Source: Deltaproteobacteria bacterium (GTDB lineage: Bacteria; UBA10199; JACPAL01). From it: a DNA stretch of 64,000 bases. The stretch spans positions 245,788 through 309,787 of the forward strand of contig JACPAL010000002.1 of NCBI GenBank assembly GCA_016180855.1, written 5' to 3'. The translations under genes were made by a program, and so were the position numbers. Shown here in pieces: positions 1 to 10,709 of the stretch. The number at the start of each line of letters is the position of its first letter. Position 1 is the stretch's first letter. The notes beneath the pieces were generated by a model. The model was not told the DNA's origin. It ran no database searches and saw only the letters and a list, made by a program, of their open reading frames with translations.

Positions 1-531
1 TTGAATGGACAGCAGAACAGACCAACCGCCTCTGTCATTGTCCGGATCCGTTCCGAGAGTGATTCCAGTGATATGACAGAGGGGAAAATCCAGCGATTTG
101 TGGCGAATGCGGTTCCATCGCTCAATCCCAATGATGTGACCGTCATTATCTCAAGGGGGGGAGGGCCCAGGACGACCTCCGGCACCCTTTTTCCATCGAC
201 CGGTGGTTCCTCTCTTCCAACAACCGATTCGCAGGCCTCCACCCGGCGTGCGGAAAAGAGCGGCCCTCATGTGGAACTCCTGGGAATCAAGATTCAGGAA
301 GGGTCTGTCGGCAGGATGAGGATTATTTTTATATTTTTGCTCCTGGTCCTGGTCGTCTTGTCGGCAGCCCTTCTCGTCAGTATTGTCCGTTTCAATAAAA
401 TGAAGCTGAGGGTTCAGAAGGGAATGCCTGTGGAGGCGGTCCCTATGGGAGCGGGGCAGCAATTTTTGGGGGGTGGGGAGGCAGCAGGAGGGGGGGCAGA
501 AGGGACATTTGATATAGGAAGAAAGGGTTAA
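1..531 (+). CDS. SctJ/FliF-family inner-membrane ring protein, C-terminal part; the 5' end lies outside the window
   Basis: Ring-building-motif-like segment (VIVRIRSE...NPNDVTVIISRG) is followed by a disordered linker, one C-terminal TM helix (IIFIFLLLVLVVLSAALLVSIV) and a short Gly-rich tail. The tail lacks the FliF C-terminal FliG-binding motif, so the architecture fits SctJ better than FliF. Confidence 0.5.
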   Translation: MNGQQNRPTASVIVRIRSESDSSDMTEGKIQRFVANAVPSLNPNDVTVIISRGGGPRTTSGTLFPSTGGSSLPTTDSQASTRRAEKSGPHVELLGIKIQEGSVGRMRIIFIFLLLVLVVLSAALLVSIVRFNKMKLRVQKGMPVEAVPMGAGQQFLGGGEAAGGGAEGTFDIGRKG

Positions 532-587
532 GGAGGGGCAACTTGAGGGGGTGTTTGCCACGATACTTAGGGTGAAGGGTTAGTTTT

Positions 588-986
588 ATGAATCAGATTC
601 GTATAGATGCCAATCGGGTTAAATTTGAGGCGCGAAACAACCCTCCACCGGAGGTTGCAGAAAAAGGCTCTAAATTCTGGAGGTTTATGCGTGGATTCAG
701 CGCCTTGGCAGCCCCGGTTGGATTTGCCTCGTCCGCATTTTTTCCCCCAGCAGCGCTCATTGGGGCCTCAGCCTACGGTCTGGGTCAGTTTGGCAGTTAT
801 AAAGATTCAACCAAAAAGGCGGAACATGAGGTGCCTTATGCCCCTTACTATCCCGGCCTGAACACCCCTGCCGGTGGGCCGGTCTCGGCCCCGATGCCAC
901 TTGCGATTGATCCGGTGCAGGATCCAATCAATATTATCGTAAACCGGCAAGAGGTCGCCAACGATATGATCGGGAGGATCAGATGA
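588..986 (+). CDS. hypothetical protein (132 aa) with one hydrophobic segment
   Basis: ORF is co-oriented and tightly packed inside the T3S cluster; no recognisable motif. Confidence 0.3.
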   Translation: MNQIRIDANRVKFEARNNPPPEVAEKGSKFWRFMRGFSALAAPVGFASSAFFPPAALIGASAYGLGQFGSYKDSTKKAEHEVPYAPYYPGLNTPAGGPVSAPMPLAIDPVQDPINIIVNRQEVANDMIGRIR

Positions 987-1345
987 TACGACGAACAGGT
1001 GATACAACCCCGCCTCTGACGGTTGTTGGAGGGAACCAGACGGCTCCTGGTGCAGGGAGCGGCGGTCCACCTCCTGCGACCAATGATGAAAGCCGGGTTG
1101 TCATTGATTCAAGCAGACCGGATATCAGCTTGGGACAGGTGGTTGGTGGGTTGCAGATTCAGGGTCAGGCACTGGAGAGAACACTTTATTATGTTCGGCA
1201 GATGATACCGTCTGAGACGATGAGAGACAGTTTCTGGGATATGCTTTTGAACGATCCGGGGATTGCGGGTAGTGACGTAAAGCACCGTGTTGCTCGTGAC
1301 CTGGCAATGGCGGATCATGAAAAAAAGGGGAATCCAACAGGTTAG
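983..1345 (+). CDS. hypothetical protein (120 aa)
   Basis: ORF overlaps the previous stop by 4 nt, consistent with an operon; no recognisable motif. Confidence 0.3.
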   Translation: MIRRTGDTTPPLTVVGGNQTAPGAGSGGPPPATNDESRVVIDSSRPDISLGQVVGGLQIQGQALERTLYYVRQMIPSETMRDSFWDMLLNDPGIAGSDVKHRVARDLAMADHEKKGNPTG

Positions 1346-1478
1346 CTGACTGCGGTCTCCCACCCTTCAAGGTGGCGACTCAAAACCGCAAGATTTCCCT
1401 CCTTGAAACAGATCTGAAACAAGGCCAATTTAACCATTTGAAAATAAAGTAGTTATTGTCTAGCCTCTTTGGCTCTAT

Positions 1479-1494
1479 TGGCACGAGAACTGCA
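1479..1494 (+). promoter_or_regulatory. candidate sigma-54 (-24/-12) promoter TGGCACG-N4-CTGCA
   Basis: TGGCACGAGAACTGCA has GG and GC 12 nt apart and matches the YTGGCACGrNNNTTGCW consensus except T to C at the first T of TTGC. It ends 27 nt before the ATG of the sigma factor gene. Confidence 0.5.
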
Positions 1495-8528: not shown

Positions 8529-8529
8529 T

Positions 8530-8847
8530 ATGGAAGGCACACCCGATTTTGCCGCGCTTTTTATGAAGATGATCGCGGGGCTCGTTTTGGTGCTCGTGCT
8601 CGCGGTTGTTTTTATCCGCTTTATTCTGCCTCGGACCGGATTGGTGGGAGGGCGCTTCTGGGGAAGGAGGGGGCAGGGGATTGAGGTGAAGGTGTTGGAA
8701 CGTGTCGTTCTGGAACCGAAGAAGAGTCTTTACATCGTCAAACTTTTGGAACGCTATTTTCTGCTAGGCTCGGCAGAGCAATCGTTGAATCTGATTACAG
8801 AGCTGTCAAAAAATGAGGGGGAACAGCTTGAAGGCAAAAATAAATAA
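8530..8847 (+). CDS. FliO-like small membrane protein
   Basis: One N-terminal TM helix is followed by IEVKVLERVVLEPKKSLYIVKLLERYFLLGSAEQSLNLI, which matches the FliO core (..ev....lg.k.sl.lV.v.g..lLLGv....i.ll). It lies immediately 5' of fliP/sctR, as fliO does. Confidence 0.5.
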   Translation: MEGTPDFAALFMKMIAGLVLVLVLAVVFIRFILPRTGLVGGRFWGRRGQGIEVKVLERVVLEPKKSLYIVKLLERYFLLGSAEQSLNLITELSKNEGEQLEGKNK

Positions 8848-9613
8848 ACTCTCCATTTCTCTGCTTCTGATCCCGCTCCTTTTTTTGAGTGATACCTTGG
8901 CGGCCCAGGCGGGGGACTTTGGCGGCCTCGTGACACCGGGGCAGGCGATTGCGCGTCCCCTTGTCCTTCTCATGGTCCTGGCCGGGATCTCCGTCATCCC
9001 ATTTGTCGTGATGATGACGACCTCGTTTGTGAAGATTGCGGTCGTCTTGGCGTTGATTCGGACTGCCTTGGGAACCCAGCAGATCCCCCCCAATACGATT
9101 ATCACAGGTCTTGCGTTGATCCTGAGTGTCTACATCATGATCCCCGTCGGCCTCGAGGTCTACCAGGTGGCGGGAGGGACGATCCAGCAGGGGAGCAGCA
9201 AGCCGTTTCTCTCCGATGTCACCGTGAGCCTGCTCGTCAAAGGGGTCCAGGAGGGGCGTGAACCGGTCCGGCAGTTTTTGCTCAAGCATACCCATAAAAA
9301 GGAACAGGAGCTTTTTTACAATCTTGCCCGGAAGATGAGGAAGGATGCGGATCGGGAGAAGGTGACAGACAAGGACTTCACCATTTTGGTCCCTTCCTTT
9401 GTCATCTCGGAACTCTCGGAAGCGTTTCAGATCGGTTTCATTATTTTTCTCCCGTTTCTTGTGATTGATATTGTGGTGACGAACATCCTGCTCTCTCTCG
9501 GGATGTTCCAGATTTCGCCGATAACGGTCTCCCTACCGTTCAAGTTGCTTTTATTTGTGTTGGTCGATGGCTGGTACCTGATCGCGAAGGGGTTGATCCT
9601 CGGTTATTTATGA
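8813..9613 (+). CDS. sctR: export-gate protein SctR/FliP
   Basis: A cleavable-type signal peptide is followed by TM helices and a FliP-family signature (VIPFVVMMTTSFVKIAVVLALIRTALG). Confidence 0.9.
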   Translation: MRGNSLKAKINKLSISLLLIPLLFLSDTLAAQAGDFGGLVTPGQAIARPLVLLMVLAGISVIPFVVMMTTSFVKIAVVLALIRTALGTQQIPPNTIITGLALILSVYIMIPVGLEVYQVAGGTIQQGSSKPFLSDVTVSLLVKGVQEGREPVRQFLLKHTHKKEQELFYNLARKMRKDADREKVTDKDFTILVPSFVISELSEAFQIGFIIFLPFLVIDIVVTNILLSLGMFQISPITVSLPFKLLLFVLVDGWYLIAKGLILGYL

Positions 9614-9879
9614 TGGAAGCCTACATCATCTCGATTGCCAAACAGGCACTCTATTTGACACTAATTTTGACCGCCCCTCCCGTCGCCGCGGCGATGCTGA
9701 CCGGCCTTGTGATCAGCCTGATCCAGGCAACAACACAGATCCAGGAGCAGACGCTGACCTTTGTCCCAAAACTCGTGGCGGTGATGGTCGCCCTTGTGCT
9801 GGCCGGCCCCTGGACGATGGTTCAGCTCGTTAATTTTGCCAAGTCACTTTTGGAGGCGTTTCCGACTTACGTTAAATAA
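9610..9879 (+). CDS. sctS: export-gate protein SctS/FliQ
   Basis: An 89-aa protein with two TM helices sits in the conserved position between R and T. Its start overlaps the SctR stop. Confidence 0.85.
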   Translation: MMEAYIISIAKQALYLTLILTAPPVAAAMLTGLVISLIQATTQIQEQTLTFVPKLVAVMVALVLAGPWTMVQLVNFAKSLLEAFPTYVK

Positions 9880-10709
9880 TGGAACGGGTCTTCCACATCG
9901 CCGGCTATGAGATCGACTGGCGGTTCTCGCTCCTGCTCGCCTCGCTGATCATGATCCGCATGATCATGATCACCACGACGATCCCTTTTCTCACGGGCAA
10001 GCCGGCCCCCGGCATGGTGAAGATCGGACTTGCCCTCTCGCTCCTCTTCTTTCTGTTTCCGTATCTCTCTTCGGAGAGCAAGGGGGTTATGGCACTCACA
10101 CCGATCCAGCTCGTGACCCTTTACTTCAAGGAGGCGTTTTACGGCCTCGCGATCGGCTTCACCTCGTCGATCGTCTTTCACGGGATTCAGGCATCCGGTC
10201 TCGTGATTGACAATCAGAGAGGGGCTGCCCAGGCACGCATGTTGATCCCCCAGTTTCAACAGGAGAGCTCTGTTTTTGGCCAGTTTCAGTTTCAGCTCGG
10301 CCTTGTCCTTTTCCTGGCGATTGGCGGGCACATCCATTTCTTCAATGCGGTGATTGGGAGTTACGACAAACTGCCTCTCTTGGGAATCCCCCCTTCCGGT
10401 GGGAACTTTCCAGCGTTTGTTGATGAACTGATCCACTTGACCGGCGAGGTCGTCGTCCTTTCGGTTCAGCTTTGCGCCCCGGTCCTGATCTCGATCTTCA
10501 TTGCCGATGTCATCTTGGGGACGATTTCGCGCACCGCCCCGGCGATCAACGTCTGGGAACTTGGTTTTATCATCCGTGGTGTCCTGGGTGTCTTCGTAGT
10601 TTTCCTCGCGCTCGGTCTGATTGTGAGCCAGATGGAGAGGATGACGCTCGGGATGGTGGGGCAGGTGCAGAGGGTTATCGATTTTCTCTCTGGTTTACGA
10701 TCATTGTAG
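9879..10709 (+). CDS. sctT: export-gate protein SctT/FliR
   Basis: A 276-aa polytopic membrane protein in conserved position. Its ATG overlaps the SctS stop. Confidence 0.85.
   Translation: MERVFHIAGYEIDWRFSLLLASLIMIRMIMITTTIPFLTGKPAPGMVKIGLALSLLFFLFPYLSSESKGVMALTPIQLVTLYFKEAFYGLAIGFTSSIVFHGIQASGLVIDNQRGAAQARMLIPQFQQESSVFGQFQFQLGLVLFLAIGGHIHFFNAVIGSYDKLPLLGIPPSGGNFPAFVDELIHLTGEVVVLSVQLCAPVLISIFIADVILGTISRTAPAINVWELGFIIRGVLGVFVVFLALGLIVSQMERMTLGMVGQVQRVIDFLSGLRSL

Follow-up and report, generated by a model that had tools for sequence, protein, structure and literature searches.

A type III export gene cluster with flagellar and injectisome characters in a deltaproteobacterium

Described systems and the new cluster

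A gene cluster at the start of a 64,000-nucleotide stretch of DNA from a Deltaproteobacteria bacterium (NCBI GenBank assembly GCA_016180855.1, contig JACPAL010000002.1, positions 245,788 to 309,787 of the forward strand; this whole stretch is called the window below) carries type III secretion genes. Its closest known counterparts are two type III secretion systems (T3SS) of Myxococcus xanthus, the needle-less T3SS* (mxan_2434-2464) and T3SS(2) (mxan_5643-5654). Abby and Rocha (2012) described such "Myxo" systems of the Myxococcales as descendants of an intermediate that have no secretin, needle, or translocon, and reported them to lack FliE and FliG (PMC3459982). Later studies present the T3SS* of M. 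xanthus as required for prey lysis, in which it acts together with a Tad pilus (PMC10849154, PMC12075869), and report FliO from Myxococcota and from some proteobacterial non-flagellar T3SS (2025; PMC12403147). Both the idea of an intermediate and the occurrence of FliO in non-flagellar T3SS are already known.

The new cluster resembles the Myxo systems in being non-flagellar, in having no secretin, needle, or translocon homologues within the sequence covered, in carrying SctJ, SctI, the ATPase, SctRST, and FliO, and in being regarded as intermediate between flagellum and injectisome. Unlike the Myxo loci, which are reported to encode the whole export apparatus without FliG, it is devoid of sctU and sctV but includes a clear FliG homologue. 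Its family also has an in-cluster FliA-like sigma factor with promoters of its own, a feature unmentioned for Myxo loci in the literature searched, and, unlike Myxococcus, its relatives bear names that mark only uncultured organisms.

With the flagellum, the cluster shares a three-domain FliG with the E-x-P of the EHPQR motif, a FliM with the GGxG motif and a separate FliN, FliO, the fliG-to-fliR gene order, a FliA-like sigma factor with CCGATAA −10 elements, a predicted sigma-54-then-sigma-28 order of control, and an ATPase nearest to a Firmicute FliI. It differs in having an SctJ lipoprotein in place of FliF, in the loss of the FliG torque charges and a region before the MFxF motif that is ~40 residues shorter, in a FliM without CheY-binding peptide, in LcrH-like chaperones, and in the lack of FliE, rod, hook, filament, FliL, and Mot genes nearby. 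The likeness to injectisomes, such as the Yersinia YscK/Q/L/N platform, lies in operon positions, in the types of SctJ (a lipoprotein), SctL (scoring above FliH), and SctO (YscO-like), in a weakly SctI-like protein, in SctR and SctT, in LcrH-like (class-II-like) TPR chaperones, and in an FHA-domain SctD-like partner in relatives of the window. Unlike injectisomes, the cluster has a FliG homologue without YscK similarity at the sctK position, an SctQ split into a FliM-like protein and FliN, FliO, and an ATPase outside the sampled injectisome clade, with no secretin or needle found. The first-pass annotation of the window, made from its letters and open reading frames (ORFs), had suggested a hybrid or intermediate between flagellar and non-flagellar systems, and this joint occurrence of both sets of characters in one cluster supports it.

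A further point of comparison is a chlamydial SctK candidate with fold similarity to both the FliG and SctK families (SPfast preprint, 10.1101/2025.03.14.643159). As in our cluster, its gene lies between sctJ and sctL, its product is similar to FliG, and it has been proposed as a ring-to-SctQ adaptor. The chlamydial link is by fold only and within a complete injectisome, whereas the FliG link in the window exists at the level of sequence profiles and extends over all three domains.

We read the cluster as encoding the core, in cytoplasm and inner membrane, of a non-motile type III export machine derived from the flagellum. Its sctU and sctV genes would lie elsewhere, it would belong to a large family whose source names point to uncultured "Deltaproteobacteria"-labelled genomes and metagenomes, and we give this reading a probability of roughly 0.7. 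Four features appear new relative to the literature searched: a FliG, encoded at the sctK position, whose three domains can be recognised by sequence; a FliM that has the FliG-contact motif; a FliA-like sigma factor inside the cluster, together with conserved promoters; and the size of this uncultured family.

The FliG homologue and other core proteins

All genes that the first-pass annotation had named between positions 1 and 10709 were confirmed there on the + strand by the family scan that it had proposed, run with Pfam and NCBIfam (YscJ_FliF, FliG_C, FliO, and others matched). Coordinates are those of the window, and genes lie on its + strand unless marked otherwise. The fliF-to-fliR order that had been called exact holds from fliG to fliR, but fliF and fliG are not adjacent, as orf132, orf120, the sigma gene, and the SctI-like gene separate the genes of SctJ and of the FliG-like protein, and fliL is absent. 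This gene order is compatible with both E. coli fliG-to-fliR (bar fliL) and Yersinia yscI-L plus yscN-T because those two orders are themselves homologous. Since the cluster shares its order with injectisomes (I-J-K-L, N-O-P-Q-R-S-T), order alone is not discriminating. All genes of the cluster are intact and closely packed.

Judged by its sequence profile, the 331-residue product of the gene at 2846..3841, at the sctK position of injectisome operons, is a true FliG homologue across the N, M, and C domains. Pfam alone gives a weak match (FliG_C, 1.6e-6). A family profile built from 136 sequences finds FliG chains in PDB at E=3e-18, with the middle and C-terminal domains as separate stretches, and its alignment to E. 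coli FliG falls into three colinear pieces that correspond to the N, M, and C domains. When the family was compared with FliG by hhalign, the probability was 95.6% over FliG residues 2-312. The top 15 Foldseek matches of the structural model are all FliG, and these fold matches are reliable at the level of domains only because the AlphaFold2 model is mediocre (predicted local distance difference test score, pLDDT, 64; predicted template modelling score, pTM, 0.32). The alternative that had been named for this protein, SctK instead of FliG, was tested as well, and hhalign of the family against YscK returned a probability of 0.7%, so that the link from FliG to SctK is positional only.

The FliG-like motifs noticed at first pass do exist, with "GESPR" at the position of EHPQR and "PFSFDHL" at the position of MFxF. 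Across the 136 members, the columns of EHPQR, the FliM-contact motif of flagellar FliG, retain E125 in 134 and P127 in 126 sequences, while H is mostly replaced by S and Q mostly by R. The five columns that hold the MotA-facing charges of the E. coli torque helix (K264, R281, D288, D289, and R297) are all variable in the family, and in the window protein they read A, G, R, R, and T. Compared with E. coli FliG, the stretch from the M domain to MFxF is reduced by ~40 residues, and ~70-90 additional residues, which include a conserved RYWK motif, follow the C domain.

Position 1 of the window falls inside the gene that encodes the protein of the inner-membrane ring (1..531, C-terminal 176 of 320 residues; Pfam YscJ_FliF, TIGR02544), and we read its full length from identical DNA on the longer contigs L001 and L003. 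The part in the window comprises the end of the YscJ_FliF domain, a linker, a transmembrane helix, and a cytoplasmic tail of ~47 residues. NCBIfam scores are 123 bits for TIGR02544 SctJ versus 38 bits for TIGR00206 FliF, and seven aligned orthologues share a lipobox cysteine (LGC/AGC/TGC) and a single C-terminal transmembrane helix. By these sequence features, the ring protein is an SctJ-type lipoprotein and not a ~550-residue FliF with two transmembrane helices and a FliG-binding C-terminus. Of the earlier description of this protein as SctJ-like with a short tail, the first part stands and the second only partly, as ~47 residues follow the C-terminal helix and end in a GTFDVG-like motif that is kept across species in the same alignment. 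Binding of this tail to the N domain of the FliG-like protein is speculation.

The FliM-like protein (7222..8148, 308 residues) consists of a FliM middle domain (Pfam FliM, 1.7e-17) and a C-terminal SpoA domain (FliMN_C). A profile from six loci matches E. coli FliM at 1e-14 over FliM residues 59-288, GGxG included, versus 0.013 for YscQ, where the match is confined to the shared SpoA part. At its N-terminus the protein reads VVRSPNIVPFDFGKLPH, where a CheY-binding peptide would be LSQxEIDxLL. Since the first ~38 residues do not align to E. coli FliM and the match begins only at FliM residue 59, the CheY-binding peptide is missing. The adjacent gene for FliN / SctQ-C (8145..8528; SpoA domain, Pfam FliMN_C 6e-21) scores 84.7 bits against the C-terminal part of SctQ versus 70 bits against FliN in NCBIfam.

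Among the proteins that would dock onto this platform, the SctL/FliH stator-stalk protein (3842..4477; Pfam FliH 4.7e-20, T3SS_SCTL 2.4e-9) is matched better by SctL than by FliH models of NCBIfam, and the central stalk SctO/FliJ (5787..6305) matches YscO-like at 3.9e-21 and FliJ at 1.6e-3 in Pfam. The ATPase SctN/FliI (4474..5790, 438 residues) scores 643 bits with NCBIfam SctN and 639 bits with FliI_clade2, whose cut-off it exceeds, and after trimming of the alignment its identity is 59% with FliI of the Firmicute Acetoanaerobium, 56% with YscN, and 47% with E. coli FliI. In a tree computed by neighbour joining from 18 ATPases (417 columns, 200 bootstraps), the clade of the window ATPase groups with this Firmicute FliI in 195 of 200 bootstraps and with the five injectisome ATPases in none of the 200. 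As the method is crude and the sampling sparse, we use this tree only to place the ATPase outside the sampled injectisome group. The SctP/FliK-like protein (6309..7229) has a C-terminal substrate-switch domain by Pfam matches below cut-off (Flg_hook 3.7e-5, HpaP 4.6e-3), and the Flg_hook domain is present in its orthologues of loci L022 and L023. The SctI-like (inner rod) protein of 154 residues (2362..2826; Pfam T3SS_basalb_I E=5e-4, below cut-off) has its gene directly 5′ of that for the FliG-like protein in every related locus.

The gate proteins SctR/FliP (8813-9613), SctS/FliQ (9610-9879), and SctT/FliR (9879-10709) are each matched by Pfam and NCBIfam. NCBIfam scores are 231-248 bits for SctR versus 196 for FliP, 127 for SctT versus 121 for FliR, and 95 for FliQ versus 87 for SctS. 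In tblastn, SctR reaches 177-185 bits with Ysc, 159 with E. coli FliP, and 144 with Firmicute FliP, and SctT reaches 77-86 bits with Ysc, 36-68 with E. coli FliR, and 47 with Firmicute FliR. By these scores, SctR and SctT are nearer to Ysc than to E. coli or Firmicute FliP and FliR. FliO (8530..8847) is matched above cut-off in Pfam (8.4e-11) and below it by TIGR03500 (45.6 bits; cut-off 55.25). FliO had been taken at first pass as something that classical injectisomes do not carry. Its presence here holds but its exclusivity does not, given that PMC12403147 lists it for some non-flagellar T3SS. Taken singly, the proteins of the core disagree on flagellar versus injectisome affinity as far as their sequences can tell.

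Sigma factor, promoters, and candidate cargo

The first gene of the core operon encodes a FliA/WhiG-like sigma factor of 278 residues (1521..2357; Pfam Sigma70_r2 and r4) in which regions 2 and 4 are both present. Its best NCBIfam model is TIGR02479 FliA_WhiG at 148.9 bits, below the cut-off of 189.6, and it is 32% identical to the product of a sigma-factor ORF that lies ~8 kb downstream of flhA in a flagellar gene region of Acetoanaerobium.

A scan for the sigma-28-type motif CAACT-N16-CCGATA with at most one mismatch finds three sites in the window, each just 5′ of a + strand cluster gene: 539..565 before orf132 (CAACT-N16-CCACGATA, one mismatch), 12005-12031 before orf1027, and 16849-16875 before orf433. 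Shuffled versions of the window have 0.67 such sites on average, and 2 of 100 shuffles reach three, but the motif was derived from two of the three window sites, so that the window count alone is circular. Related loci (referred to by number) also carry the motif: exact matches lie 5′ of a conserved gene for a protein of ~186 residues in L003, L008, L013, and L018, and 5′ of the orf132 orthologue in L013. The loci L022 and L023, obtained after the motif had been defined, have three sites each: one 5′ of the ~180-residue gene, one 5′ of the orf132 orthologue (an exact match), and one in the cargo region that follows sctT. The −10 element is of GCCGATAA type, with CAACT-N16-CCGATA(A/T) in the window, L003, L008, L013, L018, L022, and L023. 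A CCGATAA −10 element is the hallmark of FliA promoters.

The sigma gene itself is preceded at ~25-55 nucleotides 5′ of its start by a sigma-54-type motif, TGGCA(C/T)-N5-CTGC, in the window (TGGCAC-N5-CTGC at 1479..1493, 28 nucleotides 5′ of the gene), L009, L013, L014/L015, L022, and L023, six species in all. In Vibrio, Pseudomonas, Campylobacter, and Helicobacter, polar flagella are known to be under this order of control, sigma-54 and then sigma-28. The conserved two-step promoter architecture that these predicted elements make up is new in this analysis. Two regulatory genes beyond the cargo, on the − strand, encode an FHA-domain sigma-54 activator (21830-23236, Pfam) and a Ser/Thr kinase that has five PEGA domains (23255-25702, Pfam), and their adjacency makes them candidate regulators of the sigma-54 promoters.

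Downstream of sctT, five proteins without family match (1027, 401, 433, 517, and 287 residues) are encoded in alternation with two TPR proteins. The first two of them, orf1027 (12060-15143), which has a long hydrophobic stretch rich in Gly and Ala, and orf401 (15157-16362), are candidate cargo behind the sigma-28-type promoter at 12005-12031. The remaining genes, orf433, orf517, TPR201, orf287, and TPR195, form a second cargo/chaperone operon (within 16787..21861) with a sigma-54-type promoter at 16787-16801 and the sigma-28-type promoter at 16849-16875. The 535-bp intergenic region between the two units (16363-16897) contains a GC-rich hairpin and then a T run (CGGCCCGCCGG..CCGGCGGGCCGTTTGGTTTT), likely the terminator of the orf1027-orf401 unit by its sequence, and the tandem sigma-54-type and sigma-28-type motifs lie between the hairpin with its T run and orf433.

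The two TPR proteins resemble LcrH/SycD-type chaperones (tblastn 7e-9 and 1.5e-7), as had been noted at first pass, and the large proteins encoded next to them are candidate secretion substrates. Between species, these large downstream proteins are unmatched by tblastn, and neither orf1027 nor orf401 matched the DNA of the related loci tested at E<=1e-4. Within the window, orf433 and orf517 have a common C-terminal domain of ~200 residues (8e-20; 17600-18199 and 19170-19749) ending in RH.SRFN, and orf1027 and orf433 have a common N-terminal motif, M..L.GFE....PGERFGLF.G (blastp 5.5e-4; 12060-12140 and 16898-16975), which could be a secretion or chaperone-binding signal.

Several small genes recur around the cluster. 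Between sctJ and the sigma gene lie orf132 (588-986; hydrophobic centre) and orf120 (983-1345), both without Pfam or NCBIfam match. An orf132 orthologue in L022 is 57% identical, and ORFs of orf132- and orf120-like size occur at the same place in L008, L009, L014, L022, L023, and L033. The conserved protein of ~170-190 residues is encoded just upstream of the window (L003 2589-3149), has a centre rich in Gly, Ala, and Pro and a helical C-terminus that closes with ..NMRA or ..MIQNMRGM, and has orthologues in L008, L009, L013, L014, L018, L022, and L023; its gene has the sigma-28-type promoter 5′ and the genes for a TPR protein and sctJ 3′. The orf287 product in the window ends ..VIANFRG, and we take the C-termini of both proteins to recall needle subunits. 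A profile of six sequences of the ~186-residue protein matched nothing in PDB or Pfam, so we claim no needle or rod subunit.

Further upstream, L003 carries on its − strand (1-2136) a gene for a product of at least 703 residues, divergent from the cluster and with an own promoter, AAACT-N15-CCGATAA. We considered this protein as SctV and rejected it, given that it has no Pfam match, lies on the opposite strand, and has its own sigma-28-type promoter; by these features it is more likely cargo. In relatives, e.g., L008, L014, L022, and L023, its place is taken by an FHA-PEGA-TPR SctD-like gene. On the other side of the core, three of three loci have an opposite-strand insert after sctT: a gene for an AAA_14/DUF4143 ATPase in the window (10701..12005, − strand, between sctT and the cargo genes; Pfam), probably not part of the export machine, PIN plus PhdYeFM in L022 (16270-16937), and AbiEii plus ParE/RHH in L023 (16208-18116). 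This spot between core and cargo looks like an insertion hotspot of mobile or defence type.

The rest of the window (26-64 kb) holds housekeeping genes for the most part. A triad of PrkA kinase, DUF444, and SpoVR-like genes at 28311-32865, a conserved stress or starvation module, is unrelated to the T3SS finding. The trp operon (38648-50909) is interrupted, with trpE, trpG, and trpD followed by three large ORFs without Pfam match (41833-44100, 755 residues; 44097-46700, 867 residues; 46595-47404, 269 residues) and then trpC, trpF, trpB, and trpA.

Related loci, alternative readings, and implications

Thirteen further contexts from other species share one gene order. Its 5′ part comprises the genes for an FHA(YscD_cpl)-PEGA-TPR protein, a protein of ~95 and one of ~180 residues, a TPR protein of ~136 residues, and SctJ; its 3′ part begins with one small gene or two and the sigma gene (uncalled in L033), followed by the genes for the SctI-like protein, FliG-like protein, SctL, ATPase, SctO, SctP, FliM-like protein, FliN, FliO, and SctRST. 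In some lineages (L011 and the P0259 locus), the sigma gene is the first of the cluster and the SctJ module lies at another place. This order of ~20 genes recurs among species whose FliG-like proteins are only 20-55% identical. An exhaustive profile search returned 540 clusters of the FliG-like family at 50% identity (E<=1e-3), 180 of them at <=1e-10, and the best 150 of the 540 are mostly 300-370 residues long with near-full-length match. A scan of 185,579 species genomes with a close FliG-like profile gave four loci, all in metagenome-assembled genomes (MAGs), a metagenome scan with the alignment A1 gave six, and tblastn of the FliG-like protein against all plasmids found no match. The 120 closest ATPases (70-84% identical) are metagenomic and most of their entries have no source name. 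The names present are "Deltaproteobacteria bacterium", "Pseudomonadota bacterium", and "bacterium", nearly all flagged as MAG, and look-ups of 20 family members gave no name of a cultured organism.

Several parts of a complete machine were looked for around the cluster. By tblastn, FlhA/SctV, FlhB/SctU, SctC, SctD, SctF, FliE, and YopB/D have no homologue in the window, and SctV, SctU, SctC, SctF, and FliE have none in 17 loci (queries for gate and secretin: E. coli FlhA/FlhB and Yersinia LcrD/YscU/YscC). SctV, SctU, and a secretin are also absent from the flanks of 12 related loci (up to 10 kb on each side, less at contig ends), and Pfam results for L022, L023, L033, and L034 are negative for the domains FHIPEP, Bac_export_2, and Secretin. 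Pfam scans of the large ORFs of the window contain no flagellin, hook, rod, Mot, or secretin families, FliE being the sole tblastn query among rod, hook, filament, and stator. The lack of flagellin, hook, rod, Mot, FlhA/FlhB, and secretin genes first noted for the surroundings of fliR extends across the 64 kb by Pfam and tblastn, and the stretches upstream of position 1 covered by longer contigs and relatives have no sctC, sctU, or sctV. The suggestion that sctD sits elsewhere needs amending for the family, from which it is not missing: an SctD-like FHA(YscD_cpl)-PEGA-TPR protein of ~660-775 residues is encoded a few genes upstream of sctJ in L008, L014, L022, L023, L033, and L034. To our knowledge, SctV and SctU are needed in every T3SS that has been studied. 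Because of this, and because the SctP/FliK switch that acts on SctU/FlhB is kept, sctU and sctV are probably encoded elsewhere in the genome, as flhBA are in E. coli.

On these data, the machine may be pictured as follows, its assembly and secretion target being inferred. An SctJ lipoprotein ring, joined in relatives by the FHA-PEGA-TPR SctD-like protein, would house the SctRST gate, with FliO as its assembly chaperone as for FliP. Under this ring, the FliG homologue, the FliM-like protein, and FliN would form a C-ring-like sorting platform in which the FliG homologue links the membrane ring to FliM, a role held by FliG in flagella and by SctK in injectisomes, without stator contact. SctL, the ATPase, and SctO would dock onto this platform, and SctP/FliK implies a substrate switch acting on SctU/FlhB, putatively encoded elsewhere together with SctV/FlhA. 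Expression would have two steps. In the first, the core operon with the FliA-like sigma gene at its head would be transcribed from a sigma-54 promoter, which the FHA activator and the Ser/Thr kinase probably drive; in the second, this sigma factor would read the CAACT-N16-CCGATAA promoters of the ~186-residue protein with its TPR chaperone, of orf132, and of species-specific cargo with LcrH-like chaperones.

A number of points weigh against the reading as a non-motile export machine. With SctV and SctU not found in the sequence covered, the machine is incomplete as seen, and no needle, rod, or translocon homologues were detected in the window and the loci covered. The SctI and SctP assignments, being sub-threshold Pfam matches, are weak, as is the structural model of the FliG-like protein, and the use of the CAACT-N16-CCGATAA promoters by the encoded sigma factor is argued by analogy with FliA and from co-occurrence. 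The literature searched holds no experimental study of any family member.

Among the alternatives, orthology to the M. xanthus T3SS*, i.e., a secretin- and needle-less export platform that lyses prey with a Tad/Kil pilus, would bear on family membership and biological role and does not rival the machine's nature. The neighbouring genes fit such a view, as an FHA-sigma-54 activator, a PEGA Ser/Thr kinase, and PrkA/DUF444/SpoVR are gene types common in Myxococcota-like bacteria. Within the sequence covered, the window also shows the combination of FliO with no secretin, needle, or translocon found, and published studies let the Myxo systems, which have no secretin, needle, or translocon, branch first in the non-flagellar T3SS tree (PMC3459982), report FliO in both M. 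xanthus clusters (PMC12403147), and describe T3SS* as a sorting platform plus export apparatus (PMC12075869). Yet the Myxo loci are reported there with the whole apparatus and without FliG, whereas here FliG is present and SctU/V lie outside the cluster; no Myxococcus or cultured genus appears among the source names shown for the 120 closest ATPases (>=70%), the genome scan yielded MAGs only, and the window has no Tad genes, so that we consider this orthology unlikely, if not markedly so. It is quite improbable that the cluster belongs to a classical host-targeting injectisome with sctC/D/F/U/V and the translocon in other loci as in Chlamydia and the FliG-like protein as a divergent SctK. The SctJ lipoprotein, the YscO-like protein, SctL, the closeness of SctR/T to Ysc, the LcrH-like TPR chaperones beside large hydrophobic proteins as possible translocators, the SctD-like FHA protein next to the cluster in relatives, and the fold similarity of the chlamydial SctK candidate to the FliG and SctK families (10.1101/2025.03.14.643159) would all suit an injectisome, but the grouping of the ATPase with a Firmicute FliI (195/200, versus 0/200 with injectisome ATPases, by neighbour joining), a separate FliM gene whose product is FliM-like and not SctQ-like, FliO, the sigma-54/sigma-28 control, the negative hhalign result against YscK (0.7%), and the lack of SctF or YopB/D similarity in tblastn point away from it.

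The NCBI label FliI implies a further alternative, an ordinary flagellar export and switch cluster in a motile bacterium whose genes for rod, hook, filament, and stator lie elsewhere, as do flhBA. It could claim the E. coli-like fliG-to-fliR order (bar the absent fliL), the presence of FliG, FliM, FliN, FliO, and a FliA-like sigma factor, and an ATPase that exceeds the FliI_clade2 cut-off, groups with flagellar FliI, and is labelled FliI in relatives by the Prokaryotic Genome Annotation Pipeline (PGAP). We regard it as very improbable, since such a locus would be at odds with a 320-residue SctJ lipoprotein instead of a ~550-residue FliF, unconserved stator-contact charges on FliG, a FliM-like protein without CheY-binding peptide, a YscO-like SctO next to an SctI-like gene, the absence of fliE, flgB, and flgC from the window and the flanks of related loci, chaperones that are LcrH-like and not FliS/FlgN/FliT, and cargo that varies between species. 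That the cluster is a remnant in decay, left from a flagellar or T3SS locus and without present function, is disfavoured as the least credible alternative: the cluster as seen does lack SctU, SctV, and all extracellular parts, but its genes are intact and tightly packed, the ~20-gene order persists at 20-55% FliG-like identity, promoter motifs are kept at orthologous sites, and the family comprises 540 clusters at 50% identity.

If the reading as a non-motile, flagellum-derived export machine is correct, it has a consequence for how such genomes are annotated. Most named family ATPases are labelled "flagellar protein export ATPase FliI" by NCBI and the Joint Genome Institute (JGI), and the FliG homologue is a "hypothetical protein", so that automated surveys may score the carriers as flagellated and miss the system. 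Tentatively, the family may preserve an early stage in the conversion of a flagellum into a secretion system, or be a second and independent case of such a conversion, in which the membrane/supramembrane ring would already be SctJ plus an FHA-type SctD while the FliG-FliM-FliN cytoplasmic (C) ring, FliO, and the RpoN-to-FliA hierarchy were retained. So far, arguments on how injectisomes arose from the flagellum have relied for the most part on a single early-branching group, that of the Myxococcus systems, reported to have lost FliG. A FliG homologue exactly at the position of SctK would, if this is true, be the missing sequence-level link for the descent of SctK from FliG, and a C ring that does not rotate would be able to serve as a sorting platform. 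Through this family, it becomes testable whether SctK derives from FliG, what a C ring does without a stator, and how flagellar checkpoint regulation came to serve effector expression.

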